A stretch of 36,803 nucleotides of DNA from Raillietiella orientalis (lineage: Eukaryota), in NCBI GenBank assembly GCA_036172245.1, contig JAYWIR010000072.1:372001-408803 (forward strand), in the 5' to 3' direction. Both the position numbers and the translations under genes were made by a program. Under the pieces are notes generated by a model that saw only the letters and a list, made by a program, of their open reading frames with translations, was not told the DNA's origin and made no database searches. Of the stretch, positions 5,213 through 34,822 are shown piece by piece; the stretch's first letter is position 1, and every line of letters starts with the position of its first letter.

Positions 5213-5495
5213 TCATTGCCCTACCCTCCATAAACTAAATTTGTATTTTCTTTTTACACCCGCGTCCCCATAGGCTCCGGAACATTTGAGGTGCTCATCG
5301 TTTAAATCCCCGTGAGTACGGAGCCTCACCAAAAACCCTTTTCCCTTCCCTCCAGTTTTTGATTTTTGTTTGTTTCCCCTCATTCCCCCCACGCTGCGAG
5401 CGGTTTGTTTACCAGGCCTGCGTGGCGGTAATTTTCCTATGTTCTCTGTCGTTCTGTTGGTTGGGGACATTGTCCCTGACCAGTTTATTATTATT

Positions 5496-5525
5496 AATAA
5501 ACGCCCCGGCGTGACCGGGTGATAA
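5496..5525 (+). other. 3'-terminal motif of A1: AATAAA plus CCCGG/CCGGG stem-loop
   Basis: aataaacgccccggcgtgaccgggtgataa; recurs at the ends of A2, B1, B2, C and E. Confidence 0.85.
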
Positions 5526-5534
5526 ATTTCAATC
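5526..5534 (+). repeat. Direct repeat ATTTCAATC flanking A2 (TSD-like; partner at 11441-11449)
   Basis: Identical 9-mer on both sides of A2; the right copy continues into the E endonuclease frame (D)FNLCLL. Confidence 0.75.
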
Positions 5535-5535
5535 G

Positions 5536-5550
5536 AGTGCGGACGTGTTT
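5536..5550 (+). promoter_or_regulatory. Conserved 5'-terminal motif of A2 (candidate internal promoter)
   Basis: AGTGCGGACGTGTTT; similar 15-mers at the 5' ends of C, B1 and H. Confidence 0.55.
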
Positions 5551-5612
5551 TTCTTCGCTCTCGTCTCCGTGCTTTCATCCGCTTCATCTTGGCGTCGTAC
5601 ATTTTGACGACG

Positions 5613-10500: not shown

Positions 10501-11127
10501 AGAACCAAACTCCTTGGCACCTGGAAGACAAGTGAGTTGGCGGACGCCGCCACTCCTCGGGTTACTGCAAAGGGACTCCTCCGGTGGGCAGAAGAACTTG
10601 CTGTCACCCCCGAAGAACTTGTAGTCCCTCCACAGTGTATGGACAGTTCGCTGCTCCCCCTTGCTTGGAAACAAGCCGTGCTGCTTTTCGTTCACTGGGG
10701 TTTTCAGTGCAACGAGCGTTGGCATCGTGACTCTGGGGGACTTGCGTCTGCGAACTGCGTTCGGTGCGGATCGACGGAGTCGATTCCGCACCTACTTCTG
10801 GACTGCGGTGTCCTACAAGGACTGTGGCGTAGGCTGGCAACAGCACTATTGCATCCCGTGGACACCGCAAGAGACTTGCTGCGACGATTCTTCACGCCGA
10901 GCGGGCTTTCAGTAAGCGCAAGGATTGCAACTATCGGTTGCATACGCGCGATAGTTTCCGTCCGCCAGGCGTTGGTAATCAACGGACAGTACCAAGAGGT
11001 AATCAGCAAAGCATCCTTCTACATGGGAGCATCCGCTAGATGGCCTCATTTGACAGAGGAGACAAAGAGGAATCTCGCCGCAATACACCGCCGGTTTACA
11101 CACCCTCATCAGCGGCCAACCCGGTGA
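7534..11127 (+). pseudogene. A2 ORF2 (EN-RT-CCHC) with two in-frame stops
   Basis: ORF pieces 7534..7833, 7936..9585 and 9619..11127 share one frame; TAG at 7831-7833 and 9583-9585; same motifs as A1. Confidence 0.95.
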
Positions 11128-11410
11128 TCCTTGCCCTACCCTCCATAAACTAAATTTGTATTTTCTTTTTACACCCGCGTCCCCATAGGCTCCGGAACAT
11201 TTGAGGTGCTCATCGTTTAAATCCCCGTGAGTACGGAGCCTAACCAAAATCCCTTTTCCCTTCCCTCCAGTTTTTGATTTTTGTTTGTTTCCCCTCATTC
11301 CCCCCACGCTGCGAGCGGTTTGTTTACCAGGCCTGCGTGGCGGTAATTTTTCTATGTTCTCTGTCGTTCTGTTGGTTGGGGACATTGTCCCTGACCAGTT
11401 TATTATTATT

Positions 11411-11440
11411 AATAAACGCCCCGGCGTGACCGGGTGATAA
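11411..11440 (+). other. 3'-terminal AATAAA plus stem-loop motif of A2
   Basis: Identical to 5496-5525. Confidence 0.85.
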
Positions 11441-12691
11441 ATTTCAATCTATGTCTGCTAACAGGTGAGCCAGAAACACAAGAGAACGCGATGAACGAGT
11501 TGTGCGCCGCCATGCGTGCGCGCAACTTGTTCGCGGGTGAGAGGGGAATGGTCCGCAGCTTCGACCACGTCTTCCTCGACGCTGACCTGTGTTCACGGGT
11601 CGGCAAACGGGGGAGGGTTGCGTCGACGTTGTCGGACCATTCCTGGTTAATTTTCGAGTTGCGGCCTCGTGACAAGTGACCGCCATCCAGGGATTTGCGT
11701 CTGCCGGGGGACTGGACGCGACTCTCAGGTGCGAAGGAATACCTTCGCGAATACCTGAGAGGGGTCACGCTCCGTAATCTCCAGGACTGGGACCTTTTTA
11801 AGGAATCGGTCCGCGAGTTCTATGAGCAGTTCTTCCTGGATCGCCTGCCCCTCGGATTCGGCAAGGGTGCTCGCAAGCATCGGGCCTATTTACAGGCTCG
11901 TAGGTACGAAAGAACCCCTTATGTCCGTCGCCTGGCCGAGTACCGCGCCGGGGCCGAACGCCAAGCCTGGCAATCCGGGTCGGCCAGCTTGCTGGACGAC
12001 CAGGGCCGGGAATGTTCTTCCCCGGCGTCGGTACGGCATCTCGTGCGGAGTTTCTATTCCTCCCTTTACGCCAGGGAGCCCCCGGATCGAGACGCCCCTG
12101 GGCGCTTGCTTCCGGATGGCGCCCCGGCAATAGGAAAGGAGGAGATGGAAAGCCTACTCGAGCCTTTTACCACCAGCGAAATTCTCTCCGATATCAAAAG
12201 GCTCAAGAAGCGTAAAGCTCACGGGAAGATGGCTTGCCCGCGGAGTTGTTTCAGAGCTTTGCGGCAGAGCTGGCACTATTGCTGCTTAAGTTGATCAGGC
12301 TGATCCGAGACGCAGGCGATGTTCCCGCCTCGTTTCGTTCAGCCAGAGTGAGGCTCCTTCCGAAATGGGGACATCTCAGGGATTTAAAGAACTGGCGTCC
12401 GATCACGATCGTGAATGCGGACGCCAAGTTGATCGCAGGGCTATGGGCTTCGCGTCTGGGGCAGGTGGCAGAATCCGTAATTAACCCGGAGCAGACTTAT
12501 GCTGTTCGCGGGCGAAGTATGGATGCCATCCTCTTCTTCGCAAGCACATGAGTGCACCTGCAGAGAAAAGAAAAAAAAGGGATAGGGAAAGTCGGCAACC
12601 CCACATTGGGGCCGCCAGCCGGGCTGGGAAGAAACCCCCGGGCGGGGAAGGGAGTCCTAGCGCTCGCAGTCGATCTCCACAAGGCGCTCGA
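11441..12691 (+). pseudogene. Element E, ORF2 middle segment (EN C-terminal half to RT DLHKALD), cut by A2 on the left and B1 on the right
   Basis: FNLCLL...SFDHVFL...SDH, NWRPITIVNAD, PEQTYAV, LAVDLHKALD; stops and a frameshift. Confidence 0.9.
12678..12691 (+). repeat. TSD of B1 (CACAAGGCGYTCGA; partner at 27711-27724)
   Basis: cacaaggcgctcga versus cacaaggcgttcga, 13/14 identical; removing 12692-27724 restores AVDLHKA(L/F)DCVAQKLLL. Confidence 0.9.
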
Positions 12692-12722
12692 TTTTCACCC
12701 GGATTTCGCCGGGGCGTTTATT
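12692..12722 (-). other. 3'-terminal AATAAA plus stem-loop motif of B1
   Basis: Minus strand reads aataaacgccccggcgaaatccgggtgaaaa. Confidence 0.85.
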
Positions 12723-12910
12723 GTCAAAATAAACTTTTACAAAGACGTGCGGTGGCTGGACCGTTGCTCCAGCGAAGCACGAAGAAACACAGAGCCTGCC
12801 GGGTCACCGGTTCGCAGACCGGTACGGTCCACCACAACAGCAGGGGGAAGGGGGAAAAGCAAAAAACAAAACAAAAAAGAAAAGAAAAGTTGGGAGGGTA
12901 AAAGAAGGGA

Positions 12911-15900
12911 TCACAGTTGCTGGTGGGGCCGTTGCATCCTTTGCAGGATGCCGGCAAGCTCCTTCTGTATTCCTCAGTCCAGGTGGGGCCATCGGGACGC
13001 CCTCCTCAGGAACTGGGAGGCTGGCTGGATGGCACCCTGGACGCGTTGTCCTCCAGTAGCCTTGCTCCAAGCGGTGACGATCCCGCGTAGGCAGCACAAA
13101 GCTACTAACGAGGCCGCTGGCCGAAGGGCGTCGGCAACCAAGAGGGCTTTCTGTGCGTCCCTAAGGTTGCCTCAGGGGATTCCGATGACCGCGGCAAAGC
13201 GAAAACAAAGGGGCCGTAGGGCAACAAAATCCACTAGAAGGTGGATGAGGGACTCCCGTTCCCCACACCTGACGCAATTGGGGTCCACCGCATCCCAGGT
13301 CCAGTGGTGTCGGCGGGCGTTGCAGGGGAGTCCCCAGTGCTGCAACAGGAGAGTCGACTCCTGCCATTTTAAGGAAAGAGCGGAAGTGTTCATGAGCACC
13401 GGGGGCCACTTCAGATGTTCTATGGGAACATCGAGCAGCGCGCCCTAGCGCAGAAGTCCATTGGGAGGCGTACTCGGGGTCGCAGCGTCTGTTAACTGGT
13501 CCGTCTTCCACTCTCCTATCTTCTTCTCCTTTCCGGAGATTGTTACTGTAACCACCCACTTCGCCGCAACATCGCTGACCAGATCTTCCATCAGGAAAGG
13601 CAGCGCAGCAGGGAGGGCGGCTCTTCCTGCCCACGCTCTCTTCTTTGGATCCTTCAGGATCTCGCGGAGCGTGCACCTTCTGTAACCCCTAAACAGGAAC
13701 CTTCGTTCCTGTTGGGAGCGTTGCATGCCGAACTGTCCCCACGTTCGAACCATTTCCTGCAATCAGGCACTACCGTTAAACGGGCGACAGGCGAGCAATC
13801 CTGCGTTTTTCCGATACAGCGCAGCCACCCTCCGTAGCTGGAGTCCGCATCGGTTGACGCGGCGACGGAGTGCAAGAAACGACGTCAGTCCCGTCTTGGC
13901 GGTGGATTGCTGGAGAAGGAGACGTGCAGGGACGCACCAACAGGTGCACCACAACTCTGGAACGAGTGCCGACAAGAGGAACTGGAGCTGAAGCTCCAGC
14001 CGCTCCAGCGTCAGGAGGCCCAGACCACCATCCCTACGAGGAGCGCACAAGTCCTTTAAGCGGGCTCGGGCCCTCCCGTTGCCCCAAAGGACGATACGGA
14101 GGAGGTCCTTTGTCCGCTTTTTAATCCTCTCTGTGGGGGGCAAACAAAAAGCAGGGGGCGGAGGGGAGGAGCCGCGAACGTGTTCCAAACCGCGGCCCGT
14201 TCATGCAGGAAGAACCTGCCGTCCTGGAACGGGCCGATCGCCTCCTGAGCCTTCTGAAGGCAGCCGGACCACGCTTCCGCAGGGGAGTAGTCCCTCAACG
14301 GCACACCAAGATACTTGAAGTACCTCACCGTGGGGATCCACAAACGGACCCAGTCCTGCTGCCCTGCCCACGCCGCACCAACTGGCATCACGGACGACTT
14401 CGCCCTGTTCACCGTAAGTCCGCTTCCCCGATGCAGCAGGTCGAAGAACTCCTCGACCGCCGCACCCGGGGTGGACATAGGGAGCAGCAGCAGAAGGTCG
14501 TCCGCGTATGCTGAAACGGCCGGCGTACCGGCTCAGTCGTGCGGCAGGTGCGCCAGAGTTCCCCTGTACGCTCTCAGTACCAACTCAAAGTAGGTACTAA
14601 AGAGCAAGGGGCTCAGGCTGTCTCCCTGCAGGATCCCACGGCGCACCGGCACGCCGTGCACGGTCTGCCTGCTGAAAGTAACATTGATGAGCGCGTCGCG
14701 CCAGCAGGAGCGCAGATAGGCCACTAATGAGGCCGGGAAGCCCAAGCGTTCCAGAAGCTCCAGAAGGAGATTCTGGTCGACGCAATCGAATGCTTTTCGC
14801 AAGTCGATTGCGACCGCAAGGGCTCCCTCCCCCACCCGACCATCCGACCCCTTGCCGGCGCACGCACCTAAATTCCGGCTGCGCACCAAGCTCCTTTCTT
14901 GTTGGAGCTCTAGCCAGGTGGAAGCGTGGAACAGGTTCGCCTCCATGCTTCGCCCGGGAACAGCATATGTCTGTTCCGGGCTGATGAAGATGCTGGCAAC
15001 CCGTCCCAGACGCTCTGCCCAAACCTTTGCTAGCAACTTGGCGTCCGCATTCACTATTGTGATGGGACGCCAGTTGTTCATGCTCCTCAGATCTCCTCCC
15101 TTAGGGAGGAGCCGCACCTTTGCCGGACGAAACAAGGCGGGAACGTCACCTGTTTCGCGTATCAGCAAGGTAAGTTGCTGTACCAGGGGAGTAAGCTCAG
15201 TCGCGAAAGTTTGATAAAACTCCGCGGGCAGGCCGTCCTCCCCTGAAGCCTTTCGCCTCTAGAGCTTTCCGATGGCCGAGAGGATCTCGTCCATCGTGCT
15301 AGGCTCGTCGAGGGTCTTTCTCTTCTCCTCCCCGATCGCTGGAGCGCCTTCCGGAAGCAGGAGTCGTGAGACGTTCCTCTCCGAAGGTGCCCTGGCATAC
15401 AGGGAGGAGTGTTTACTCCGCAGCAGGCTGCGGATTTGGGCAGGTGCCGAGTGCTCCTGGCCCTGATCGTCCAGTAAGCTGGCCGATCCGGACTGCCAGG
15501 CTTGGCTCTCGGCTCCCGCTTTGTATTACGCCAGCCTGCGGATATCGGGGGTCCTAGCGTAACGACGGGCCTGCAGGTAGGCTCGTTCGTTACGGACCCT
15601 AATCCCAAAACCCGTGGGTAGGAGGTGCAGAGGGAACTGGTCGCAGAACTCCTGGACCGACCGCTTGAAGCGGTCCCAATCCTGGAGTGTCCGCAGACTG
15701 AAGCTCCGTATCAACGTGCGGAGATGTTCCGCCGCGTCCGGGAGCTTCAGCCAGTCCCCTGGGAGACGCCACGCTGACGATGGGGGGCCCCTGTCGCGCC
15801 GATGGATCTCGAGGACTAGCGGGCGATGGTCGGACAGCTCGCACGGTAACCTGCCGCGACTGCCCACAAGAGGGCACAGGTGCTCGTCAAGAAACACGTG

Positions 15901-16338
15901 GTCAATGCTGTCTTCCATCCCCGGTGCACTGGCCAACAGATTACAGGTGTGCACCGCCATGCACACCTCGTTGACCAGGCCAAGCTCGGGATTCTGCTCA
16001 TCTGGTTTCAGGCAAACGTTGAAATCGCCTGCAACTAGATGGGCATTCCGCACGCCTGCTTCGTTCAGCCAGTCTCGCCGGAGGGCAAGGAAAAACTCTT
16101 TTTTCGCCCTCCTGTTCATCAGGTCTTTCCGCTCGGTGCTTACACGTTCGTGACGATCAGATCGATCGAGTCGGACCACCTGTGAGTCAGCTGGCCGACA
16201 CGACCGTGATCGTAGAACCGCACGCCCCGAGCCGCGGCCTCGATGGCTGGCCGAAGCAGGAAGGCGACACCGCAACTTTTCGCTCTCCCACACCTGTACC
16301 ATAGCCGCCCTCCGGAGATCCGTTCGATCTCTTGCGCT
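12911..16338 (-). pseudogene. B1 ORF2, major 3' portion (EN remainder, RT, CCHC finger), with frameshifts and stops
   Basis: GDFN, SIDHVFL, SDH, NWRPITIVNAD, DLRKAFD, GILQGDSLSP, CVRCGERESLIHLLVD; near-identical to the reverse complement of B2 ORF2. Confidence 0.93.
16327..16338 (+). repeat. TSD of C (ATCTCTTGCGCT; partner at 25777-25788)
   Basis: Identical 12-mer at both ends of C; occurs once at the uninterrupted homologous site in B2 (30353-30364, opposite strand). Confidence 0.92.
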
Positions 16339-16455
16339 CGTACAGTGCAGACGTGTTTCCGCGTCTATCCACGCCAACGATCGGGCAACTTTGTGCCTGC
16401 GTTTTTGCTCGCACTTGTGTGTTCCTGTGCAATCTACCAAGTAGCATAGTGTAAC

Positions 16456-17701
16456 ATGGGCAGTACACAGGATAGTGTGGAGGAGCAAGCCACTGGATGC
16501 ACTTCAGCTGCACTTGAAGGGGCTGCATCCTCCGTAATGGTTTCCTCGCCCCCGGTGCGGAGTTACGCCGCGGTTACCTCCCAAAGACCAGGACCCTGCG
16601 ACGCGGAGTTCCAGGCATATGTGTCATCAGGATACATGCCTGCACTCCGTTATAAGGTCAGTGGGCCACTTAACGGGAGAATCGGTCGTGAGCTCAAAGA
16701 TGAGCTCGTCCGGATAGGGGTTCTCGAGGAGGAACTCCTTGCCATAATGCCAGCTGGCAGGATGAAATATACAAAGATTCGGTGCAAGAACGCAGCACTT
16801 GTGAAGCGCCTTCTCCGTACGCCGTTGACCATCAATGGCAAGGAAGTCCTACCTACCGCGATGGACGACTCTTTTGTCGTTCAATTGTGCGACATCGAAC
16901 CGGAAATCTCCGACCGCGATGTCGTAAGTGTGCTGACGAAGTTCGCCACCGTGCACGCTCTGTGAAGGAGGCCAAATCCTCTTAAGGATTTCCCCTCTGT
17001 CCACATTGGACAAGCCTCCGCGCGGATCACCGTCGCGAACAGGCGTGTTGTGCCTGAGCAGATGCAGGTAAACGGCACGGTCGTTCACCTGTGGTTCATA
17101 GGCCAGACTCGCGCGTGCGAGAAGTGCGGCAAGGAGGGGCACCGAATTAATGAGTGCCCTTCTCCAAGATGCCGCTATTGCAAAGATTCCCGGTACGAAA
17201 TCAAAAAGTGCCCGGTACTTGCAAGAAAAAGAGCCGCAGCGGCAATTCGTCGGGTTCAAGAGACCACTGCACGAAAAGCCGCAGCGGAAAATAAAAAACG
17301 TCGTCCGCAAAAACTCGCAAAAAACCACGAGCGATCCGCGGATGAAAAGAAAGCATCCCCGCCCGCAACGCCTCGAAAGGGGAAAGTCACGGCGGGGAAG
17401 CCAATTAAAAAGGGGCCCGAGGGTTTGACGCGTGCCGTGCCTTCCCTCTCTGCCGAACTTGCAGGCACCTCTCCGAGCCAGGAACCAGGGAATCTCCGTA
17501 ACACCCTGGAGGGAAAGGTAGGAAAACAGGAAGACCGCAACAGTGCGAAGACTTCTTGCCCCGTTCCGTTGTCCCTTCCGAGTTCCGGACAGCCTCACTG
17601 CAGCGCAGGCTTCACTGCAAAGGCTACGAAAGCCGTAAAAAGCAGCGTCGCGACGAGCAAAAGCACGCTGCATGCAGTCGCTCCATCGCCGACTCGGCAG
17701 G
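16456..17701 (+). pseudogene. C ORF1, N-terminal part (zinc knuckles)
   Basis: Clear homology to A ORF1 (PALRYKVSG, AMDDSFVV, TVVHLWF); CEKCGKEGHRINEC; TGA at 16963-16965 in place of Trp. Confidence 0.9.
17685..17701 (+). repeat. Imperfect TSD of D (partner at 21176-21191)
   Basis: atcgccgactcggcagg versus atcgccgttcggcagg; C ORF1 rejoins in frame (..SPTRQ|ERSNLPTVKKVTPLPLF..). Confidence 0.8.
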
Positions 17702-20700
17702 TTTCCCCAAGTCCCACAAGGGGTGGGGTAAGTTTATTTTTCTATAAAAATACAAAATTTACATTCGCAATCTCATTCACTCAATACAAACATTTTGCAC
17801 TTGGGGGTCCTTGGGTTGCACTAGAGTTCTGCTTTTCAGGGGGGAATTCCAGCTGGATGGTCCCGGGCGTCGTCCTGGATTCTCTTCAGGATGAATCGGT
17901 ACGTCCAGGCGTGGATCTTCCCGCAGTTCCTGATGCCGATTTCCCTCTTCAAGAGCCCTTGTAGGATCTCCATCCGTGGTGCGGCTCTCCTGGCTTTCCT
18001 CATTTTGCACCACCGCACAAGTATGGCGGTGATCAAGAGGGCTATGGTCGTCCTCACCATGGGATTCTAACAGGGAACATTACCATCCCCATGAAACATG
18101 CCGGCGAGGATCTCCATAACGAACTTGTTGGTAAGTCCTATGATCCTTTTCAGGATCAGCCAGTCATGCAGCAGTGTGGGACACGTCAAGACGTGAAGTC
18201 TCGTGTCGTCGTCGCCACATACTGGGCAGTCTCGGTCTTCCCGTCTTCCTGTGAAGTGCTGCAATCGGGACCCACTCTGGATTCCTCCGTAATAAAACAT
18301 CAGGAGGTTATCCTGGGTGCCCGGCGGGAGGTCACTCCTCCAGAGCGTCGTGCCGATCGCTAACAGGCTGAACCGTTCACTCTCGTAGCGTTCGGTGGCT
18401 TCCTGGAGGGCACTGGTGTCACGGTCGTTTTCTTGGATAAGCCTTCAAAGGTTTGTTCTGGATACCCTCGACCATGCGAAGTCGTTGTGGTTTAACCACA
18501 CTTCGCGGGTCCTGTGGGTAAACCTTCCTAACATCATCTCTGTATACCGAAGTATACGTGTTTGATGTAGGTAGCCTCCTCGCCTCCACTCCTGGATTTG
18601 CAGTAGGGTAACTCTGGACCGCTGCTAGATCCAGCATCTCGTGTCCGGCGGGACAGGAAGCAACCAAGGGATCAGCAGGATGGACTCGTCTTGCCAGAGT
18701 TCCCTGCTTCGCGGCACGATCTTGATTTGGTGCTTCCGCACCAGCCGTTGCTTCCTCCTTCAGGTGGGGTCGATCGTTATCCATTCCCCTACTTTGCCTA
18801 GCAGCGCAGTCATCAGGCCTTTCGAGTTGTTAAGCAACAACGCGTAGGCCCTGTGCGCCGCATACGGCCAGTCATCCCAGTAAGTTGCAATGTCCAGGAT
18901 GTGTCGCGTATCCATGATTTCCATGGAATGTGCAAGCGACTTCATCCCGGAACCGCCTTCTTACCTGGGACGACACAGGGGTTTCAGTCTTACTCTTGGG
19001 CGATAGTGGCCCCAGAGTGTTTTTCTTACCAGCTTGTCGAACTCCCTAGTAGTGTCCTTGTCCATCCTCGCGAAGGCCGCTCCGAAGAGCACTTTCGGAA
19101 GGAGTACTCCGTTCCATATGTTGCCTTTCGCTTCATCCCAAGGTCCGTTCGGGTGTACTTGGCTGCTTCCGTGGCCGTTTTCCCCAGGATTTCCTTCCAC
19201 AGCAGCTTCGACGCAGCGCCGTCGGCGATGTAGACTCCCAGGTACTTGGCCGTGTCCACCGTACGGAATCCACTACCCGTTAGAGTGGAGAGATCCAGTA
19301 TTCCGACGGGCAAAAGCTGGCTCTTCTGGGAATTGATTTTTAAGCCCAAGCCATGTTCCATCAGGTCCAGCACATCCAGAAACGCACGCTGATTTTTCTC
19401 TCCCTTGATGAAGAAGAGTAGATCATCGGCGTATGCCAGATGGGTAAGACGCTGGCTATCGATGGTAATCCCGCTTGGTCGTCCGCTATTCTCGATAAAG
19501 GACGACAACGCCTCCATATAGATTACGAACAGCATCGGACTTAGCGAGTCGCCCTGTCGGACTCCTCGTTCCATCCTGATTGCTGCCATCTCCTGGCCGT
19601 TGATCTTGAGCTGGCAGTACTGGTTCTGGAGTACCGCCCTCACGAAGTTGCTGAAGTGTTCCGAAAGCCCTAGCTTCTCCAGAAATTTAAGCAGCATCCC
19701 GTGGTCGATGGAGTAGAAGGCCTACTCCATGTCAGTGAACACCAGCACCAGGTTCTCGCCGACGTATCGACTGAGTCCAACAGTGGCCTGGGCACACTTG
19801 ACATTGTCCGGCATGTGTCGTCCTGGGACTGCACATGTCTGGACCGGAGAGATCAGCCTCGACATGACCTTGCCTAAGCGGTTGGACCAGATCTTTGCCA
19901 ACCACTTGGCAACGGAGTTTAGGATCGAGATTGGCCTCCATTGGGCGATCTGGGTAGAGTCGCCTCCTTTCGGCAGCAATCTCATCCGACTCTCGTAGAA
20001 GGACTGAGGTAGTCTGCCTTCTTCCCGGATGCAGAGGGTCAACTGGTGGAACAAGGGCAGGTAGGCGTGCACGTACCGCTGATAGTGCGTGATGGGTACA
20101 CTGTCAGGGCCCGCTGCCACGTCCTTGCGAAGTTGCCCAAACGCAGTCTTCACCTCTTCTTCGGAGAACTCCTCCTCCAGTCTGTTCCGCTGGAGGTCGT
20201 CGGTCCTCTTCTCGAGATAGCCCAAGAAGGCCTGTTGACTAGAGCGACACAGCTGTTGTCGCCTGAAGTGTTTCGTGTACTGCCTGTGAAAGGCATCCAC
20301 AATGTCCTCACACGAATGTCGCTTTTGGCCGTCGTACTGGATGCAGAAGATATCGGTTGCCAGATTTCTCTTCTCCAGCACGCCGACTTCCCCTTTTATG
20401 TTATTGAGGACGTACCGACTCTCGTACTGATCGAAGTACTTTGAGAGGGAGCGATCTTGGATGTTCAGCTCCCGGTACGCCTCTTGTTTCAAGCGCCTAT
20501 CCCCGAACTGCATGTTCGCAAACCGGTGTATCCTGTGTCTCAGGCTGTCCCAGTCGGCGACTCTTCGGATTGTTGTTGCCCTGAGAATCGCCTCCAGGAC
20601 AGCCTGATGTCCGGGATGGGTTTCGAACCAGGCGGGCATGCTGATGAGCGCCGCCCTGGTGCCTTGCCTCCGCCGAGGATTCTCCGTTCTTAGGGAAAAC

Positions 20701-21175
20701 CGCACCAGGGGGTGATCGGACACCGTGGTCATAATGTCTCGAAAACCCTGGATGCGGTTCCCAAGTTCGGTGCTGTGCAGGACGTGATCGATCGGCTTGT
20801 GACTTGCAGTTCGCCACACCAGTCCGAACTCGTCGGATAACCGCCGATACGCCGTCCTTCCTCTGGCGTCTTCGGAGTGAGTGATCTCATCCAATATGTT
20901 GAGATCGCCAGCAACAATCACGACGTCCTTGGAAGCAACCTTTTCACGGAGTGCTGCATGCAGCGCCTCCGCACAACGATGTTTTAGCCTGTGCGGCCCG
21001 TACACGTTCACCAGGATGAGGTGAACAGTAGCGGACCAGGCCAGTCGCACGCCGATGATTCGTCCGGGTTGGGGACAGAACACTTTTAGAATAGTGGGGG
21101 CCAAGTTGTTCTTGATTAGGTCCGCCACTCCCTGCGTGTTCCGTTCTCCCTCGCTGACGAAAATCTGCCCGTTGA
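17702..21175 (-). mobile_element. Non-LTR retrotransposon copy D, divergent family, 5'-truncated within the endonuclease
   Basis: Starts in EN (..TQGVADLI..); no ORF1; ends AATAAAC-hairpin-AAA; flanked by an imperfect TSD. Confidence 0.9.
17836..21175 (-). pseudogene. D ORF2 (partial EN, RT, CCHC finger), several stops and frameshifts
   Basis: NVYGP, GDLN, PIDHV, SDH, QWRPISILN, GVRQGDSLSP, YADD, YLG, CPVCGDDDTRLHVLTC. Confidence 0.9.
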
Positions 21176-21190
21176 ATCGCCGTTCGGCAG

Positions 21191-21850
21191 GAGAGGAGCA
21201 ATCTCCCGACTGTCAAGAAGGTGACTCCGTTGCCGCTTTTTAAAGGCGTAGCGAAAACAACGCCCCCAGAGAACGCAGCGAAAATCCCGGAGGTTTCCGC
21301 AACTACTGTCGCGGAAGCCTTCAAAAATCGCGAAGGCGAATGGAAGGTTGTGGAGAGGAAGAAAGAAAAATCTGCAAAAAAAGCTCCGCAACCTCCATCC
21401 CTGAGCTCTTCCAAAGGAAAAAGCAGTCGCGGGAATACGAAAACACGCGCGGCTTGTGACTCTTCCAAGGAAAAAGCCAGCGCCTTCAACGCGTGCAAGT
21501 CCGCTTTTGTGACCGCCGAGAAGACCATTCCGGTGCAATCGGACGGATGCAAGCGCACGTCGATCGTGCGAGCATCAGACTACGCAAAGGAGTCCGATAA
21601 CGCAGCTGAACGACGCGTTACTCGTGCGGGAGCGAGCGCCCGCAGGGCTGAAGCCCTGAGGCGTGACACACTCGCCGCGGAACGGCGAGTGCTCACCCCG
21701 GAACCCACAGGTTCTGCACCCGGAGAGGAGCACCCGATTACGTGCAGCACAGTTGAGGCCGGTGGCGACCGCGCCCTCCAGCCCGTCGTGCTTCTTACTG
21801 CCCGCTCGCCATGTGAGGCGAGCACCACGGCCTCGCTTTCCCAGCCGTGA
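21191..21850 (+). pseudogene. C ORF1, C-terminal part
   Basis: Ends CSTVEAGGDRALQPVVLL..SQP-TGA, homologous to the A ORF1 end; TGA overlaps the ORF2 ATG. Confidence 0.88.
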
Positions 21851-24800: not shown

Positions 24801-25423
24801 CAAAATAGCGGGAGTCAGTAAGCTCCTCGGCAGCTGGACGACAAAGGAGCTGGTGCAAGCCGCCACACCTCGGAATCGGGCGAAGGGACTGCTTCGGTGG
24901 AGCGAACATTTCAGTGTGCCCCCCCGGAGAGATAGTGGTTCCCCCCGTTTGTTTGGACAGCTCCGTGTTCCCCCTTAAGTGGAAACAAGATGTGCTGCTC
25001 TTTTTACATTGTGCATTTCACTGTAATAGGCAGCGAAGTAAAGTTTCCGGGGGAGCCGCTTTGCCAAACTGTTCAAGCTGCGGAGAGATCGAGTCTTTTC
25101 CGCACCTTTTGCTGGACTGCGGTGACCTCCTGGAACTGTGGCGAAGGCTCACTTCGGCCATCATGCCACAAGGAGGCACTGCCATTGATGTGCTGCGGCG
25201 CTTCTTCAGCAGAAATGGACTTTCGGTTGGCGCGATTGTCGCAAACATGTGTTGCGTTCGCGCCATCGTGAAGGCCCGCTACGCCCTGGAGTTGTCATCG
25301 CAGCGAAGGGAGGCTCACCTGCTTGCAGCTCAATTCATGGAGAAGGCTTCAAGGTGGTCTCATCTTCGTGACAAGGTGAATGAGGACATCACTGGCATAC
25401 ATCGCCGGTTTACACACCTTTGA
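21850..25423 (+). pseudogene. C ORF2 (EN-RT-CCHC), several stops and a frameshift
   Basis: WNVNGL, LQE, NVYAP, GDFN, SDH, NWRPITL, DLHKAFE, RQGDSLSP, YADD, CSSCGEIESFPHLLLDC. Confidence 0.94.
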
Positions 25424-25746
25424 GAACGGCGTAATCCGGTGACCCCTGCGACCTCTTGCCCACCCATACCCCGTCCCCGTTCGCTCGTTAAAATTTCCGG
25501 TGCCCATGCTTTTATCCCCGTTTCTTCCAGAGCGATCCCAAAGACCCTTATCCCGTCCTCCTTATTCATTGTTTTTATTTTATTTTGGTTTCTTTGTGTT
25601 CCTCGCTTCCCCACACCCTTCACAAAACTGTAACTCTGGCCTGCGTGCCAGCAATTTTCTTTTTATTCTTGTTCAGTCGTCGGTTGGGAGTTTGGTTCCC
25701 AACTGGTTTATTTTGTATAATTGCTTTTTCTCGTTATGTTATATGG

Positions 25747-25776
25747 AATAAACGCCCCGGCGTCAACGGGTGAGAA
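25747..25776 (+). other. 3'-terminal AATAAA plus stem-loop motif of C
   Basis: aataaacgccccggcgtcaacgggtgagaa. Confidence 0.82.
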
Positions 25777-25940
25777 ATCTCTTGCGCTTGTTCTGCAGAG
25801 ATCACGTGGATCTCCTGCAGCAGCGCAAGGTCGTAGGACTCCAGAAGGGCGGCCATGTCTCGTCTCCTGCCGGCGTCTGTCATGCCGTTCACGTTCCAAA
25901 CGGCGATGCGCAGACGACGGCGGGAGGAGATTCCCGGCAT
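25777..25940 (-). pseudogene. B1 ORF2 N-terminus (start of endonuclease), cut by the C insertion
   Basis: MPGISSRRRLRIAVWNVNGM...LLQEIHVISAEQAQEI; matches B2 from 30201 onward. Confidence 0.93.
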
Positions 25941-25954
25941 TACTGCTGGGAAGA

Positions 25955-27616
25955 TTAAGGTGTGGGGGAGCCCGCCTCTTGCCAGACGGGCGGGATGTCC
26001 ATGGGGGTTTCGGGCTTCTCAGGCACCTGAGGCACCTGTTCGGCCTCCACCCCCTCCATCCCTTCCGTGTCCGCGCGTGCGATTCTCTCGGGCGACGGGA
26101 CCCGAGAGTTTCCCACGCTCATGGCACCCTCGCTTGCGGAAGCCATCTCTTCCACTTCGACGGGGGAGACGAGCTTCCTTGGCTTTGTGGACTTACGTCC
26201 AGCCTTCTTGCGCGGTGCCGTGCAAACGGAGGCTGCGCTTCCGGCCTCCACCTCGGGGTCGGAAGTTGGGGACTCCTGAGGAGAGGCCGGACGCCTTACG
26301 GCCTTCCTGCCAGCCTTGGAGGGTTCTGGCTGCAACGAGGCTGCCAGCTCCTCCGCGGCTCGCGCGAAGGCTACGTCATCGATGGTGGTGTCGATGACGG
26401 ACGCCGCCGCCGGCTCGCTCCCCTCGCTGTTGACTGTGTCAACAGAGGGGAGGTCGTCGGTAGCCGCGAGTTCTTTCCGGCAGCGTTCGTTAACATCGAG
26501 AAGGCGTTCGACAACGACTCTGCACTCTTCAATTATCGCGCTACCCTGCTCTTTCTTCTTCTGCTGGTAGGCGATTTTCTTTTCCATCCTCCTCTCCTTC
26601 TTTGATTTTTTGGCGGTTGCCACTTGCCACTCAGTCTCCTGGCCGGCTCCCTCAACTTTTTCTGCGTTGGTCGCCGGGGTCTCCGGTGTGGCCTGGACCT
26701 TGGCCGCGGATGGCACAGCCTTCGCGGCAGCTTTCGCCGCCAGTCTTTTCTGCAGAAGCCGGGCGCGTTTTTTAAGGTTTCTCTTGGAAACCAACCGCAC
26801 TGCTGCTTTTGGGCACATTTCCCTCGTGTGGCCCATTGTGCCGCATACTTGGCACTGCACATTGGGACACCTCTTTCTGAGGTGGCCCCACGTATTGCAG
26901 AAGCCACAGTATTTCGGCTTTCCCACATACCAGAGGTCGACGGTTTCGCCTTCGACCACCAGTTTGTGGGGAACAGTGCAACCCTCCTGAACAGTCATGC
27001 GCGCAGCAGTGAGGCCGTGTTGCAGCCCCGTGAAGTCCTCGAAAGGACTAACTTTCGTCCACTGCGCGTGGACCGTTCCAAACTGTTCCAAAGCGGCGCG
27101 AACCTGTTCTTTGCGCATTCGCGCGGTCACGTTTAACAGGTGGACCACCATGCTGCGGTCCGCGGTAGTGGGGAGAAGCTTGAGCGTACCCATCACAACG
27201 GGGGTTTTAAGCAGTCGTTGAGCCAGCTCTGCATGTTTGCAGATGACTTCAACGTACTGACCCGCGCTGCGGATGGTCATAGCGCTGAGCTCCTCCTCTT
27301 TCACATCGAGAACGCGCATGCCCTTCGAGAAGGCGCGCGCTCTCTCTAAAGAATGTAAATTGCCTACCTTGTAGAACAATGAAGGGTTGTACCCCTCCTC
27401 TACATAGGCCGACAATTCCGCCGCGGCTGCAGGCGATGGCGCCGACACAACGGCGCTTCACGCCCGCGCTGCAGCAGGGACCGATCCTGTGGGGGCGCAT
27501 GCCCCCACCTCCATCTCCTCCGGGGGCGACGTTGCTGCCGCCCCCTGGCTCTCCATCGCCTCTGGGGGCGGCGTTGCCGCTGCCCCCTGGCCATTCCTGG
27601 TGCTCGCGTCAGGCAT
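25955..27616 (-). pseudogene. B1 ORF1 with two CCHC knuckles; one internal stop
   Basis: ATG at 27616 (MPDAST..) in frame with 25955..27448; TGA at 27460-27458 where H has Trp; CGFCNTWGHLRKRC and CQVCGTMGHTREMC. Confidence 0.88.
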
Positions 27617-27689
27617 TGCTGCCTGATCGACCACCGAACCACACGACGCTTCCACTGGGAGAGACTTCCTGGCACGAGGAGCACCGAGA

Positions 27690-27704
27690 AAACACGTCCA
27701 CCCT
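27690..27704 (-). promoter_or_regulatory. Conserved 5'-terminal motif of B1
   Basis: Minus strand AGGGTGGACGTGTTT(T), a few nt inside the TSD; boundaries approximate. Confidence 0.5.
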
Positions 27705-27710
27705 AGAGCG

Positions 27711-29818
27711 CACAAGGCGTTCGACTGTGTAGCCCAGAAACTTCTCTTGGAGCTCCTGGGTCGCATGAGCTTTCCACCCTCCCTGATCAACTACCTGCGC
27801 TCCTGCTGGCGCCATGCCATAATTTCCGTCTTTTTCAGCAGTCAGAAGGTGCATGGCGTACCGGTGCGGCGGGGCATCAGGCAGGGAGATAGCCTGAGTC
27901 CCCTGCTCTTCAGCACCTACTTTGAGTTGGTGCTAAGAGCCTACAGGGTGACTTTGGCCTCCTTGCCGAGCTCGTGTCCCGGCACGCTTGCCGTAGGAGC
28001 CTATGCCGACGACCTTCTGCTCCTGTTACCTATGTCTACCCCGGCGAAGGCGGTCGGAGACTTCTTCGAACTGCTCAGCCGTGGGACCGGACTGCAGGTC
28101 AACAGGGCGAAGTCGTCGGTGGTGCCAGTAGGTGCGGCGTGGGCAGGGCAGCAGGACTGGGTCCGTCTGGGGATCCCCACGGCGAGGTGCCTTAAGTACC
28201 TTGGTGTGCCGTTGGGTGACTACTCCCCTGCGGAAGCGTGGTCCAGCTGTCTTCAAAAAGTTGAGACGGCGATCGGCCCGTTCCTGGAAGGCAGGTTTCA
28301 CTTGCCAGAACAAGCCGCGGTTTGGAACGCCTTTGCGGCCCCCATCCTCCGCCCCTTGCTTTTTGTTTGCCCCGCTTCAAGAGTAGTTAAAAAGAGGACG
28401 ACGGACCTCCTTTGTATCGCCCTTTGGGGCAAGGGGAGGCCCCGAGTCCCTCTGCAGGACTTGTGCGCTCCGCGTCGGGACGGCGGCCTTGGCCTCCTGA
28501 CGCTGGAGCGGGTAAAAATCCAGCTGCGGTGGCGAACCCTCGCCATCGCAGCAAAGATGTGGAGCACCCCTTGGTGCGTTCCGGCCCGCCACCTCGCCAA
28601 GCGTGTGTCCCGATGCGAAGGACTCGCGTCGTTTCTTCTGTGCCCTGGCCGGAAGATCCGAAGATGCGGCCTTTTGCTCGGACGCAGAGCAACCTTGGCG
28701 AAGACGAACGGTTGGATGGTTTGTGGCCCCGTTAACTCCTCCGCCTGGTTTAGGATTCTGCTGGCACATGGGCTAAGCTGAACCGGAGAAGTGAAAACCA
28801 CATGAACTGCCTGCGAATCGGCCCATACGCCAACCGCTCCCTGCGGGAAATACTGGAATTTCCCCGTAGTCGCAGGTGGGCGCTGACGACTTCCCTTGCT
28901 ACGGCGATGCCCTACCTCCTGAGGGCGCTTCAGGATCGCCAGAAGCCAAGATGGCAAGTCACCTGCCAGATCGCAGGCAGAGAGAAGATGTTAAGCGGCT
29001 GGACCACAGGAGAACTGGCGGACGCCACGACCCCGAGCGTCCAGCCGCGTGGATTAATGAGATGGGGCGAGCTGCTCGCCATCTTTACGGATGTGCTGAA
29101 GTGGCCCCCGGTACTAATGGAATCCAGGATCCTGCCCCTTAAGTGGCAAGAGTCGGCGTTGCTACTGCTGCACTGGGGTTTACCCTGCAACGCACGGCGC
29201 TTCCACTGGACAAGGGGAACTGTGGATCCTGAGTGTGTCAGGTGCAGAAAGCGGGAATCGCTCTCCCACATTATTGTGGACTGCGCTGCCATCCGACCCC
29301 TCTGATAACGGTTCGGGACGACCCTCGGGCTCCCTACGGGCAGCACCCCCAGAGACGTTCTTCGGCCCCTCTTCGTGAGGGACGCACGGCACCCAGCTGC
29401 AGCCATCGCAGCCTTGTGCTGTGTCCGTGGCATCGTGGCGGCATGGAGCGACGCCAAAAACGAAGGAGTGGGTCCACACGCGAATGATGTCATCCCATAC
29501 GTCCAACGCTTCATGCGGAGAGCTGCCGGATGGCCCCAACTGGGGAATATACGGACCGACGTCGAGGGCTTCCTTCAACGGATGGGCCCTCCTCACAGCG
29601 CTCAGTGATCCCTTCCCTGCCCTCCAACTTCTTTTTGTCTGTTTATTTTTTATTTCTCTTTTTGTTTTATCCCCATCCCCCTTCGCTGCTGAGGAACGCT
29701 ACGCTGGGCTGCGTCCCGGCGTCCCGGCAGGTCCAGTGCATATGGCCGTGAGCGGGGCCTTGTACCGCGGATGTAGTGTTTTTTAAAAATAAACGCCCCG
29801 GGCATACCCGGGTGTAAA
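27711..29818 (+). mobile_element. Element E, 3' half (RT from HKAFD, CCHC finger, 3' UTR, terminal stem-loop)
   Basis: HKAFDCV, GIRQGDSLSP, YADD, YLG, CVRCRKRESLSHIIVDC; stop at 29606-29608; ends aataaacgccccgggcatacccgggtgtaaa (29788-29818). Confidence 0.92.
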
Positions 29819-30186
29819 CCTCCAAGGCTGGCAAGAAGGCCGTAAGGCGTCCGGCCTCCTTTCAGGAGTCCCCCACTTCCGAACCCGAGGTGGAGGCCGG
29901 AAGCGCAGCCTCCGTTTCCACGGTACCGCGCAAGAAGGCTGGACGTCAGTCCACAAAGCCAAGGAAGCTCGTCTCCCCCGTCGAAGGGGAAGACATGGCT
30001 TCCGCAAGCGAGGGTGCCATGAGCGTGGGAAACTCTCGGGACCCGTCGCTCGAGGGACTTCCACGCGCGGACACGGAAGGGATGCAGGGGGTGGATCCCC
30101 AACAGGTGCCTCAGGTGCCTGAGAAGGCCGAAACCCCCATGGACATCCCGCCCGCCTCCCAAGAGGAGGGCTCCCCCACACCTTAA
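29819..30186 (+). pseudogene. B2 ORF1 C-terminal fragment
   Basis: Near-identical to the end of B1 ORF1 (..ETPMDIPP..GSPTP*). Confidence 0.9.
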
Positions 30187-30200
30187 TCTTCCCAGCAGTA

Positions 30201-33200
30201 ATGCCGGGAATCTCCTCCCGCCGTCGTCTGCGCATCGCCGCTTGGAACGTGAACGGCATGACAGACGCCGGCAGGAGACAAGACATGGCCGCCCTTCTGG
30301 AGTCCTACGACCTTGCGCTGCTGCAGGAGATCCACGTGATCTCTGCAGAAGAAGCGCAAGAGATCGAACGGATCTCCGGAGGGCGGCTATGGTACAGGTG
30401 TGGGAGAGCGAAAAGTTGCGGTGTCGCCTACCTGCTTCGGCCAGCCGTCGAGGCCGCGGCTCGGGGCGTGCGGTTCGACGATCACGGTCGTGTCGGCCAG
30501 CTGACTCTCAGGTGGTCCGACTCGATCGACCTGATCGTCAGGAACATGTACGCACCGAGCGGCAAGGACCTGATAAACAGGAGGGCGAGGAAAGAGATTT
30601 TCCTTGCCCTCCGGCAAGACTGGCTGACCAAAGCAGGCGTGCGGAATGCGCATCTTGTTGCAGGCGATTTCAACGTTCGCCTGAAACCAGATGAGCAGAA
30701 TCCCGAGCGTGACCTAGTCAACAAGCTGTGCATGACGGTGCACACCTGTAATCTGTTGGCCAGTGCACCGAAGATGGAAGACAGCATTGACCACGTGTTT
30801 CTTGACGAGCACCTGTGCCCTCGCGTGGGCAGGCGCGGCAAGTTACCGTGCGAGCTTTCCGACCATCGCCCGCTAGTCCTCGAGATCCATCCGCGCGACA
30901 GGGGCCCCCCCTCGTCAGCGTGGCGTCTCCCAGGGGACTGGCTGAAGCTCCCGGACGCGGCGGAACATCTCCGCACGTTCATACAGAGCATCAGTCTGCG
31001 GACACTCCAGGATTGGGACCGCTTCAAGCGGTCGGTCCAGGAGTTCTGCGACCAGTTCCCTCTGCACCGCCTACCCACGGGTTTTGGGACCGGGGTCCGT
31101 AACGAAGGAGCCTACCTGCAGGCCCGTCGTTACGCCAGGACCCCCGACATCCGCAGGCTGGCGGAATACAAAGCGGGAGCCGAGAGGCAAGCCTGGGATT
31201 CCGAATTGGCCAGCTTACTGGACGATCAGGGCCAGGAGCACTCGGCACCTGCCCAAATCCGCGGCCTGCTGCGGAGTTACTACTCCTCCCTGTATGCCAG
31301 GGCACCTCCGGAGAGGAACGTCTCACGACTCCTGCTTCCGGAAGGCGCTCCGGCGATCGGGGAGGAGCAGAGAAAGACCCTCGACGAGCCTTTCACGATG
31401 GACGAGATCCTCTCGGCCATCGGAAAGCTCAAGAGGCGAAAGGCTCCAGGGGAGGACGGGCTGCCCGCGGAGTTTTATCAAACTTTCGCGGCTGAGCTTA
31501 CTCCCCTGGTACAGCAACTCACCTTGCTGATACGCGAAACAGGTGACGTTCCCGCCTCGTTTCGTTCGGCAAAGGTGCGGCTTCTCCCTAAGGGAGGAGA
31601 TCTGAGGAGCATGAACAACTGGCGTCCCATCACAATAGTGAATGCGGACGCCAAGTTGCTAGCAAAGGTTTGGGCAGAGCGTCTGGGACGGGTTGCCAAC
31701 ATATTTATCAGCCCGGAACAGACATATGCTGTTCCCGGGCGAAGCATGGAGGCGAACCTTTTCCTCACTTCCACCTGGCTAGAGCTGCAACATGAAAAGA
31801 GCTTGGTGCGCAGCCGGAATTCCGGTGCGTGCGCCGGCAAGGGGTTGGATGGTCGGGTGGGGGAGGAAGCCCTTGCGGTCGCAATCGACTTGCGAAAAGC
31901 ATTCGATTGCGTCGACCAGAATCTCCTTCTGGAGCTTCTAGAACGCTTGGGCTTCCCGGCCTCATTAGTGGCCTATCTGCGCTCCTGCTGGCGCGACGCG
32001 CTCATCAATGTTACTTTCAGCGAGCAGACCGTGCACGGCGTGCCGGTGCGGCGTGGGATCCGGCAGGGAGACAGCCTGAGCCCCTTGCTCTTCAGTACCT
32101 ACTTTGAGTTGGTATTGAGAGCGTACAGGGGAACTCTGGCGCACCTGCCGCACCACTGTGCCGGTACGGCGGCCGTTTCAGCATACGCGGACGACCTTCT
32201 GCTGCTGCTCCCTATGTCCACCCCGGCTACGGCGGTCGAGGAGTTCTTCGACCTGCTGCATCGGGGAACCGGTCTTACGGTGAACAGGGCGAAGTCGTCC
32301 GTGATGCCAGTTGGTGCGGCGTGGGCAGGGCAGCAGGACTGGGTCCGTTTGGGGATCCCCACGGTGGAGTACTTCAAGTATCTTGGTGTGCCGTTGGGGG
32401 ACTACTCCCCTGCGGAAGCGTGGTCCGGCTGCCTTCAAAAAATAGAGACGGCGATCGGCCCGTTCCGAGGCGGCAGGTTTTTCCTGCCTGAACGGGCCGC
32501 GGTTTGGAACACGTTCGCGGCTCCTCTCCTCCGCCCCCTGCTTTTTGTTTGCCCCCCCACAGAGAAGATTAAAAAGCGGACAAACGACCTCCTCCGTATC
32601 GCCCTTTAGGGCAACGGGGGGGCCCGAGTCCGCTTAAAGGACTTGTGCGCACCTCGTCGGGATGGTGGTCTGGGCCTCCTGACGCTGGAGCGGATGGAGC
32701 TTCAGCTCCAGTTCCGCTTGTCGGCACTCGTTCCAGAGTTGTGGTGCACCTGTTGGTGCGTCCCTGCACGTCTCCTTCTCCATCAAGCCACCGGCAAGAC
32801 GGGACTGACGTCGTTTCTTGCACTCCGTCGCCGCGTCAACCGATGCGGACTCCAGCTACGGAGGGTGGCTGCGCTGGATTGCTCACCTGTCGCCCGTTTA
32901 ACGGTAGTGCCTGGTTGCAGGAAACCGTTCGAACGTGGGGACAGTTCGGCATGCTACGCTCCCAACAGGAACGAAGGTTCCTGTTTGGGGGTTACAGAAG
33001 TTGCACGCTCCGCGAGATCCTGGAGGATCCAAAGAAGAGAGCGTGGGCAGGAAGAACCGCCCTCGCTGCTGCGCTGCCCTCCCTGATGGAAGATCTGGAC
33101 AGCGATGTTGCGGCGAAGTGGGTGGTTACAGTAACAATCTCCGGAAAGGAGAAGAAGATAGGAGAGTGGAAGACGGGCCAGTTAACAGACGCTGCGACCC

Positions 33201-33764
33201 CGAGTACGCCTCCCAATGGACTTCTGCGCTGTGGCGCGTTGCTCGATGTTCCCATTGAACATCTGAAGTGGACCCCGGTGCTCATGAACACTTCCGCCCT
33301 CCCCTTAAAATGGCAGGAGTCGGCTCTCCTGTTGCAGCACTGGGGACTCCCCTGCAACGCCCGCCGACACCACTGGACCTGGGGAGCGGTGGACCCAATT
33401 GCGTCAGGTGTGGGGAACGGGAGTCCCTCCCCCAACTGCTAGTGGATTGTGTTGCCCTTCGGCCCCTTTGTTTTCGCTTTGCCGCGGCCATCGGAATCCC
33501 CTGCACCAATTCCAGGGACGCACTTAAAGCCCTCTTGGTTGCCGACGCCCTTCGGCCAGCTGCCTCGTTAGCAGCTTTGTGCTGCTTACGCGGGATCGTC
33601 ACCGCTTGGAGCAAGGCTACTGGAGGACAACGCGACCAGGGTGCCATCCAGCCAGCCTCCCAGTTCCTGAGGAGGGCGTCTCGATGGCCCCACCTGGATC
33701 CAGGAATACAGAAGGAGCTTGCCGGCATCCTGCAAAGGATGCAACGGCCCCATAGCAAATGTGA
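30201..33764 (+). pseudogene. B2 ORF2 (EN-RT-CCHC); open for 802 aa, then a stop and frameshifts
   Basis: All EN and RT motifs intact in 30201..32609; TAG at 32607-32609; short deletion near 32877 relative to B1; CVRCGERESLPQLLVDC. Confidence 0.95.
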
Positions 33765-33982
33765 TCCCTTCCCTTACCCTCCCTAATTTTCTTTTCTTTT
33801 TTGTTTTGTTTTTTGCTTCTCCCCCTCCCCCCTGCTGTTGTGGTGGACCGTACCGGTCCGCGAACCGTTTACCCGGCAGGCTCTGTGTTTCTTCGTGCGT
33901 AGCTGTTGCAATGGTCCAGCCACCGCACGTCTTTGTAAAAGTTTCTTTTACAATATACGCCCCGGCGAAATCCGGGTAAAAA

Positions 33983-34822
33983 TCGAATGCTTTGTGTAAA
34001 TCGACCGCGACGGCAAAGGCTCCCGCCATGTCCATCCTACCCTCTGCCCGATCTTCTTGGTCAGAGGGGGGCGCGAAGCTCCCTTGACCGTCCTGTGCAA
34101 CGCGTTGTCGCAACTGCCACCATGAGCTGGCGAGGAGCAGGTTGGCCTCTATGGTTCGTCCGGGAACAGCGTAGGTCTGCTCGGGACTCACCACGCAAGC
34201 GGCCACCCGCCCCAACCGCTCAGTTCACAACTTGGCATACAACTTTGCGTCAGCATTCACTACTGTGATGGGACGCCAGCTGCCAATGTTGCGTAAGTCT
34301 CCTGACTTCGGTAGGAGACGTACTTTAGCTGACCGGAACGAGGCGGGAACTTCGCCGTGTTCGCGGATCAGCGCACTTAACCTGAGCACCAGGGGGGCCA
34401 GCTCTGGCGCGAAGCGATGGTAAAACTCCGCGGGCAGGCCGTCCTCCCCTGGTGCCTTCCTTCTCTTGAGCCTGTTGATGGCGGAGATGTTCTCCGCCAT
34501 CGTGAACGGTTCCGCCAATCTGGAACGGTCCTCCTCCTTGAGCGCGGGAGCACCATCCGGCAGCAGGCGCTGCGCGAAATGGCGCTCAGGTGTTAGTGGC
34601 GCGTTCAAGGAGGAATAAAACTCCCACACGATGCGGCTTACCTGGGCTGGGCTGGAGCGTTCTTGGCCCTGATGATCCAGCAGGCAGGCCGAGCCTGACT
34701 GCCAGGCCTGCCTCTCCGCGTCAGCCTTGAATTCTGCCAGGCGACGGACGTCGGGACGCCTGGAATAGCGGCGGGCCTGAAAGTATGCCCGCTCATTCCT
34801 GACACCCTCGCCGAATCCCCGC
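33983..34822 (-). pseudogene. Element G, ORF2 internal fragment (EN-RT linker to RT DLHKAFD), cut by H and B2
   Basis: RGFGEGV, KAPGEDGLPAEFY, SWRPITVVNAD, PEQTYAVPGR, AVAVDLHKAFD; distinct in sequence from A, B, C and E. Confidence 0.92.

Follow-up and report, generated by a model that had tools for sequence, protein, structure and literature searches.

Long interspersed nuclear elements (LINEs) aimed at other transposable elements (TEs) have been described in the Tx1 clade, where Tx1L inserts into the piggyBac-type Tx1D, the crocodilian Tx1-Mar into Mariner-N4_AMi, Tx1-9_AMi into Harbinger families, and Tx1-8_Crp and Tx1-4_AMi into long terminal repeat (LTR) retrotransposons (PMC4494074). 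According to that report, insertions into Mariner-N4_AMi occur at two positions and keep a fixed orientation, target choice is attributed mainly to the endonuclease, and a LINE is called sequence-specific when a given sequence is found at more than 20% of its flanks (PMC4494074). A different type of system is formed by Zepp and ZeppL, L1 LINEs of green algae that build nested clusters at putative centromeres (PMC3446292, PMC8226300, PMC9940879). In this study, a 36.8-kb stretch of Raillietiella orientalis contig JAYWIR010000072.1 (positions 372,001 to 408,803 of the forward strand; hereafter the window, with coordinates counted from its first letter) was analyzed. It contains two copies, B1 and B2, of a non-LTR retrotransposon, element B, which interrupt two other LINEs, E and G, at the same nucleotide of their reverse transcriptase (RT) coding sequence.

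The initial annotation of this DNA had pointed to the targeting of other transposons by Tx1-group elements, and this background is indeed documented for the Tx1 clade (PMC4494074). Like the Tx1 elements described there, B is a LINE of the AP-endonuclease (APE) type located at a defined site and in a defined orientation inside another multicopy mobile element, with an endonuclease thought to set the target and with sequential insertions at one target. In contrast to them, the target of B is a protein-coding block of a catalytic-domain motif, and this block is common to several LINE families that are siblings within one superfamily and among which it differs synonymously. There are two B copies compared to hundreds in the published cases, and B is likened to the Tx1 elements by behavior, not by RT phylogeny. 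The window also resembles the Zepp and ZeppL clusters, since it consists of GC-rich, two-ORF (open reading frame) L1-like LINEs inserted into existing copies, nested inside one another at several levels and almost purely LINE in content. The published arrays, however, are mostly 5′-truncated 3′ ends of one family, whereas several families are found here and at least B1 and the elements A2 and C are full length. The accessible Zepp accounts describe targeting just as "targets existing copies", without a nucleotide-level site, and the likeness drawn here is one of architecture. The literature search revealed no LINE that is directed at RT-coding motifs in other LINEs, its scope not including the original Zepp descriptions, which possibly give target sites. 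LINEs that target TEs and Zepp clusters that nest in themselves have both been described before; targeting of an RT-coding motif would be new.

Two B junctions at the HKAFD codons of E and G

The left part of host E (11442-12691, + strand; tblastn with B ORF2 and sequence reading) covers ORF2 from the endonuclease DFN codons to the RT sequence ...DLHKAL-D(GA), and its right part (27711-29818, +; Pfam, tblastn and sequence reading) covers the RT from HKAFD on, the 3′ untranslated region (UTR) and a terminal hairpin ending in ...gggtgtaaa. Between them lies B1 on the minus strand, with its 3′ part (3′ UTR with the terminal hairpin and most of ORF2; 12692-16338, −; BLAST, MAFFT and tblastn) separated from its 5′ part (ORF2 start, ORF1 and 5′ UTR; 25777-27710, −; self-BLAST, tblastn and reading of the 5′ motif) by element C. 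B2 (29819-33982, +; BLAST, tblastn and junction reading) runs from the ORF1 region to the 3′ end, its 5′ side being cut by E. Its host G (33983 to approximately 34820, −; tblastn and translation) is represented by amino acids ~320-595 of ORF2, ending in ...AVAVDLHKAF-D(GA).

The 3′ end of B1 (reverse complement of ...ccgggtgaaaa) starts at 12692, where it adjoins the E sequence ...cacaaggcgctcga (12678-12691). The 3′ end of B2 (...ccgggtaaaaa) stops at 33982, and G begins at 33983 with tcgaatgctttgtg; the target 14-mer in G, CACAAAGCATTCGA, occupies positions 33983-33996 on the minus strand. Both 3′ ends adjoin the TCGA of the H-K-A-F-D codons, read in antisense, and the register is the same, so that the host sense strand reads ...TTC GA and then B in reverse complement. 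Translation through the junctions gave ...AVAVDLHKAFD followed by FYPDFAG for G and B2, and ...ALAVDLHKALD followed by FHPDFAG for E and B1. Since A is the last base of either B tail and T the first of either host flank, the junctions are exact to the nucleotide.

B1 is flanked by a 14-bp target-site duplication (TSD), with the left copy CACAAGGCGCTCGA at 12678-12691 (+) and the right copy CACAAGGCGTTCGA at 27711-27724 (+). The right copy, cacaaggcgttcga, stands directly past the B1 5′ end (27710) with one mismatch to the left copy, and the E reading frame picks up again there (HKAFDCV...). The 5′-end motif GNGGACGTGTTT was found in B1, A2, C and another element, H (four matches compared to 0.87 expected), and its presence at the 5′ end of B1 indicates that B1 is a full-length insertion. 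The 5′ ends of these four elements share GNGGACGTG(T/C)TT. The initial annotation had reported two antisense B insertions into the HKAFD codons of two host families, at one and the same nucleotide, a 14-bp TSD of B1, and interruption of the host RT; all strings and coordinates agreed with the sequence, the TSD is real, and the host RT is interrupted. The coincidence of the two junctions is a real and non-random observation.

Element B and its own version of the site

ORF2 of B2 contains Exo_endo_phos (4.5e-12) and RVT_1 (2.7e-23) domains in Pfam. The best solved-structure match of B ORF2 in the PDB was human LINE-1 ORF2p (E 1.5e-47 over the RT), and the APE domain was matched as well. An N-terminal AP-endonuclease is followed by the RT, no LTRs are present, and TSDs of 14 bp (B1) and 12 bp (C) were found, as in APE-type non-LTR elements. 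In sequence, B is L1-like: an autonomous non-LTR retrotransposon that comprises an ORF1, an APE endonuclease and a reverse transcriptase. Human L1 shows a loose preference for nicking at TTTT/A and ends in poly(A); B differs from it in having a conserved hairpin followed by four to five A and a precise junction.

The B-family 3′ end reads ...CCCCGGCGAAATCCGGGTRAAAA. The family 3′ ends (5490-5526, 11405-11441, 25741-25776, 29782-29818, 33946-33982 and, on the minus strand, 12692-12728) have three features in common: AATAAACG, a hairpin of the form CCCGG-loop-CCGGG, and a short run of A. In all five families the end is made up of AATA(A/T)ACG, the hairpin (CCCGG-N6-CCGGG), TG and the short run of A. 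The hairpin is kept in all five ends, although without compensatory changes, so that it has no covariation support. The conserved 3′ structure suggests that the RT may recognize a specific 3′ structure rather than poly(A). A premature stop was observed in B2 ORF2 at 32607-32609, where the related protein P0001 reads on and homology continues to approximately 33031, and B1 contains several in-frame stops. Judged from these reading frames, both copies are probably dead.

The corresponding site of B itself, CGAAAAGCATTCGA, encodes DLRKAFD and is uninterrupted (31893-31906, +, in B2; the same sequence at 14786-14799, −, in B1; sequence match). It is two bases off the G site and shares 11 nick-proximal nucleotides with the G target. 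DLRKAFD is found in B1, B2, P0001 and P0040, compared to DLHKAF(D/E) in A, C, E and G, and the Arg/His difference lies exactly inside the 14-nt target (31887-31907; 14785-14805 on the minus strand). The change from His to Arg in the B lineage may represent self-protection or merely lineage history. In an exhaustive HMMER search of 1.8 billion representative proteins, P0001 (77% identity) and P0040 (68%) were the only close relatives of B ORF2, both with an uninterrupted DLRKAFD, and all other matches were at most 37% identical. An earlier protein search with B ORF2 had returned 14 matches, among which only P0001, with an intact RT, was close (76%). A protein with seven matched stretches (P0017) was rejected as a relative, being an unrelated repetitive LINE gene model.

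Explanations for the shared insertion site

The best explanation of these junctions, and in our judgment probably the correct one, is that B is a sequence-specific LINE homing to the HKAFD coding block. The B endonuclease would nick the host sense strand at TTCGA^C, that is, 5′-CACAARGCRYTCGA^C (...GCRYTCGA^C), and the freed 3′-OH would prime cDNA synthesis on the 3′ end of the B RNA (AATAAA, the CCCGG/CCGGG hairpin and GTRAAAA). A second nick 14 bp upstream on the other strand would then give rise to the 14-bp TSD. By this route B would always be antisense to the host RT, splitting it four codons past the aspartate of DxxKAFD, and B flanks would be expected to read TCGARYGCYTTGTG inside antisense RT genes. 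We infer the order of the nicks, recognition by the protein and restriction to the site genome-wide from target-primed reverse transcription together with the junction geometry.

The degenerate 14-mer CACAARGCNYTCGA has six exact matches in the window, namely in A1, A2 and C, in both E copies of the TSD and in G. Counts of the nick-proximal suffixes fell from 308 for TCGA to 149 for YTCGA, 58 for RYTCGA, 25 for CRYTCGA and 12 for GCRYTCGA. By our own arithmetic, a second insertion placed uniformly at random in a ~6-kb host would hit the homologous nucleotide, on the homologous strand, in approximately 1 of 12,000 cases. If B required no more than YTCGA, both copies would fall among the five H-type RT motifs with a probability of approximately (5/149)^2, or ~0.001; with a 7-nt need (25 sites) this would be ~0.04. 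These counts imply a B specificity of at least ~7-8 nt near the nick, although they cannot show that all 14 nt matter. The proposal of the initial annotation, that B recognizes a constrained coding motif of related elements, was upheld in so far as two independent insertions at the same nucleotide are present; genome-wide restriction to the motif and recognition of the whole motif beyond ~7-8 nt would go further than what the two copies show.

Whether the two junctions descend from one event was weighed against the relationships of the hosts. One ancestral insertion could have been copied by segmental duplication, gene conversion, host recombination or assembly error, the region is highly repetitive, and a single BLAST alignment spans the junction (11854-16338 versus 34818-30353, 88.5% identity). 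Within that span, however, the likeness is unevenly distributed. When E plus B1 was aligned by MAFFT with the reverse complement of B2 plus G, the B part matched at 83-99 of every 100 columns, with 70 in its last window, and the host part at 43-70, the step in identity lying exactly at the junction. Over the 840 nt upstream of the motif, B1 and B2 are 95% identical and E and G 64%, which places these hosts as far apart as either is from family A or C (60-64%); over the same length E is 67-68% and G 66% identical to B. The TSD-sized flanks of E and G differ at 3 of 14 positions, all synonymous, and since the B copies differ by only ~5%, this argues against gene conversion. Moreover, the 3′ end of E (29818) adjoins an internal B2 position that runs uninterrupted in B1, and B1 sits within E. 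B2 was thus inserted before E and B1 after E, so the two insertions are separate in time and do not represent one duplicated event. The claim of the initial annotation that this is not one insertion duplicated was confirmed by this order (B2 > E > B1) and by the E-G distance, and the alternative that E and G are recombined parts of one ancestral insertion is spoken against by the identity step and the same order. A single origin is therefore largely refuted and highly improbable, and on this comparison a single duplicated insertion or gene conversion can be regarded as excluded for practical purposes.

Two other explanations accept separate insertions and differ in what places them. In one, the nick preference of B is short and loose, ~4-6 nt (for example YTCGA), as in ordinary L1, and its hits are partly coincidence amid LINE sequence. 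In its favor are the small number of copies (two), the abundance of TCGA-type sites counted above, the three unoccupied H-type motifs, and the unrelated sequences at the remaining insertions (C in B1, E in B2 and H in G). It is nevertheless unlikely, because the chance of finding both copies among the five RT-motif sites is ~0.001 with the 149 YTCGA sites and still <0.01 with the 58 RYTCGA sites, and because orientation and register are identical in both copies. In the other, targeting would be guided by nucleic-acid homology rather than by protein alone: a read-through B transcript would carry UCGARYGCYUUGUG from just downstream of its source locus, pair through it with the exactly complementary 3′ end of the nicked host strand and fix the register, or, in a variant, the near-identical RT-motif RNA of B would help to find the site. 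The 14-nt TSD corresponds exactly to the stretch that could pair with a read-through tail, the B motif shares its 11 nick-proximal nucleotides with the G target, and in the R1 and R2 elements read-through target sequence serves precise insertion. A nick must still be placed first, however, and with host-B identity of just 66-68% overall extended pairing is impossible; taken together, the two forms of this explanation appear quite unlikely.

Several points weigh against homing of B to the HKAFD block. The B2 5′ junction, the B2 TSD and the other half of G lie beyond the window edge. The site was left unoccupied in three elements, with the identical 14-mer present in A1 (3323-3336, +) and A2 (9238-9251, +) and the variant CACAAAGCTTTCGA in C (23551-23564, +; all by sequence match). 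The case consists of two B copies, both from a single window that owes its selection to this very coincidence, and scans of public collections for more B 3′ ends were empty or random. Scanning metagenomes for a 20-nt stretch from the 3′ end of B gave 25 loci, all 25 of them chance matches without B context, and a viral-contig pattern scan with the B 3′ end gave 95 stretches, none related. Two of the metagenome loci (L009 and L012), the only ones with BLAST matches to the window, were rejected, as these matches cover the pattern alone. No further B copy was found in a viral-contig protein scan or in pattern and protein scans of prokaryote-genome contigs, and a protein search with the ORF across the G/B2 junction returned 312 candidates, none significant. 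One sequencing run (X1) holds 0.23 of the sampled words, and 620 of its contigs mapped to the window at ≥85% likeness, 53 of them at ≥99%, which indicates that related copies exist in that sample. The loose ends (6 of 296) and pieces (8 of 649) listed for X1 do not bear on the flanks of other B ends or on bridging of 12692. One X1 contig joins the left part of E at 12691 to the C RT at 23629 (side of 24 nt); it may represent an uninterrupted E-like RT in that sample, the joint being too short to interpret.

The same flank is found at two of two B copies in the window, and the definition of a sequence-specific LINE is stated over many copies. The site is used by no other family among the window insertions. 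The two-copy case for homing of B is a well-founded lead, not a result.

Nest architecture, family A and possible significance

The window has a G+C content of 58% and was found to be made up wholly of non-LTR retrotransposons. The nest was mapped by self-BLAST, tblastn with B ORF2, tblastx and direct junction reading. Exo_endo_phos and RVT_1 domains were detected by Pfam in the long ORFs, together with zinc knuckles in ORF1-like frames. Host G contains B2 and H, B2 contains E, E contains A1, A2 and B1, and B1 contains C, which contains D; the deepest path, G > B2 > E > B1 > C > D, has five levels. Insertions are antisense to the host in five of eight cases (B2 and H in G, B1 in E, C in B1 and D in C) and sense in three (E in B2, A1 and A2 in E).

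Element C (16339-25776, +; self-BLAST, tblastx and junction reading) carries D and is flanked inside B1 by the 12-bp TSD ATCTCTTGCGCT at 16327-16338 and 25777-25788. D is a much more divergent LINE (roughly 17400-21500, −; tblastx map), with 28% identity to B ORF2 and an RT motif reading DME*AFYSI. Its 3′ end, near 17730-17790, is A/T-rich and without a hairpin, and the highest contig depth of X1 falls on D. Element H has its 5′ end at ~34820 (+; junction reading).

A1 (1-5526, +) and A2 (5535-11441, +) were placed by the self-BLAST, tblastn and tblastx map; they are arranged in tandem, head to tail, and are 94.75% identical. Each of their 3′ ends (...gggtgataaa) runs into the octamer tttcaatc (5520-5540 and 11435-11455), and the 5′ end of A2 lies directly after the first copy. 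In E, tttcaatc falls in (ga)t ttc aat c, which encodes D-F-N of the GDFN motif conserved in the endonuclease. From these flanks, the arrangement looks like two sense insertions of family A into the same E site and a second possible case of homing to a catalytic motif, in which the expected family A flank would be TTTCAATC in the GDFN codons.

A broader and more doubtful extension would see a guild of sibling LINE families, each homing to its own frozen catalytic coding block of its relatives, B to the RT HKAFD codons in antisense and A to the GDFN codons in sense, twice in tandem. Such families would build self-propagating, Zepp- or centromere-like nested islands while disabling competitors; escape would be possible only via constrained residues, and the attacker would be self-protected by the His to Arg change.

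If homing of B is true, its landing site, a coding motif that its relatives are not free to alter, would be multicopy, harmless to the host cell, renewed by the spread of its victims and conserved across families despite synonymous drift, and every insertion would kill the reverse transcriptase of a competitor. It would also yield a natural endonuclease with a new specificity, one of interest for targeted insertion, and would provide a nucleotide-level mechanism for the self-assembly of nested LINE islands such as the Zepp/ZeppL arrays at algal centromeres.

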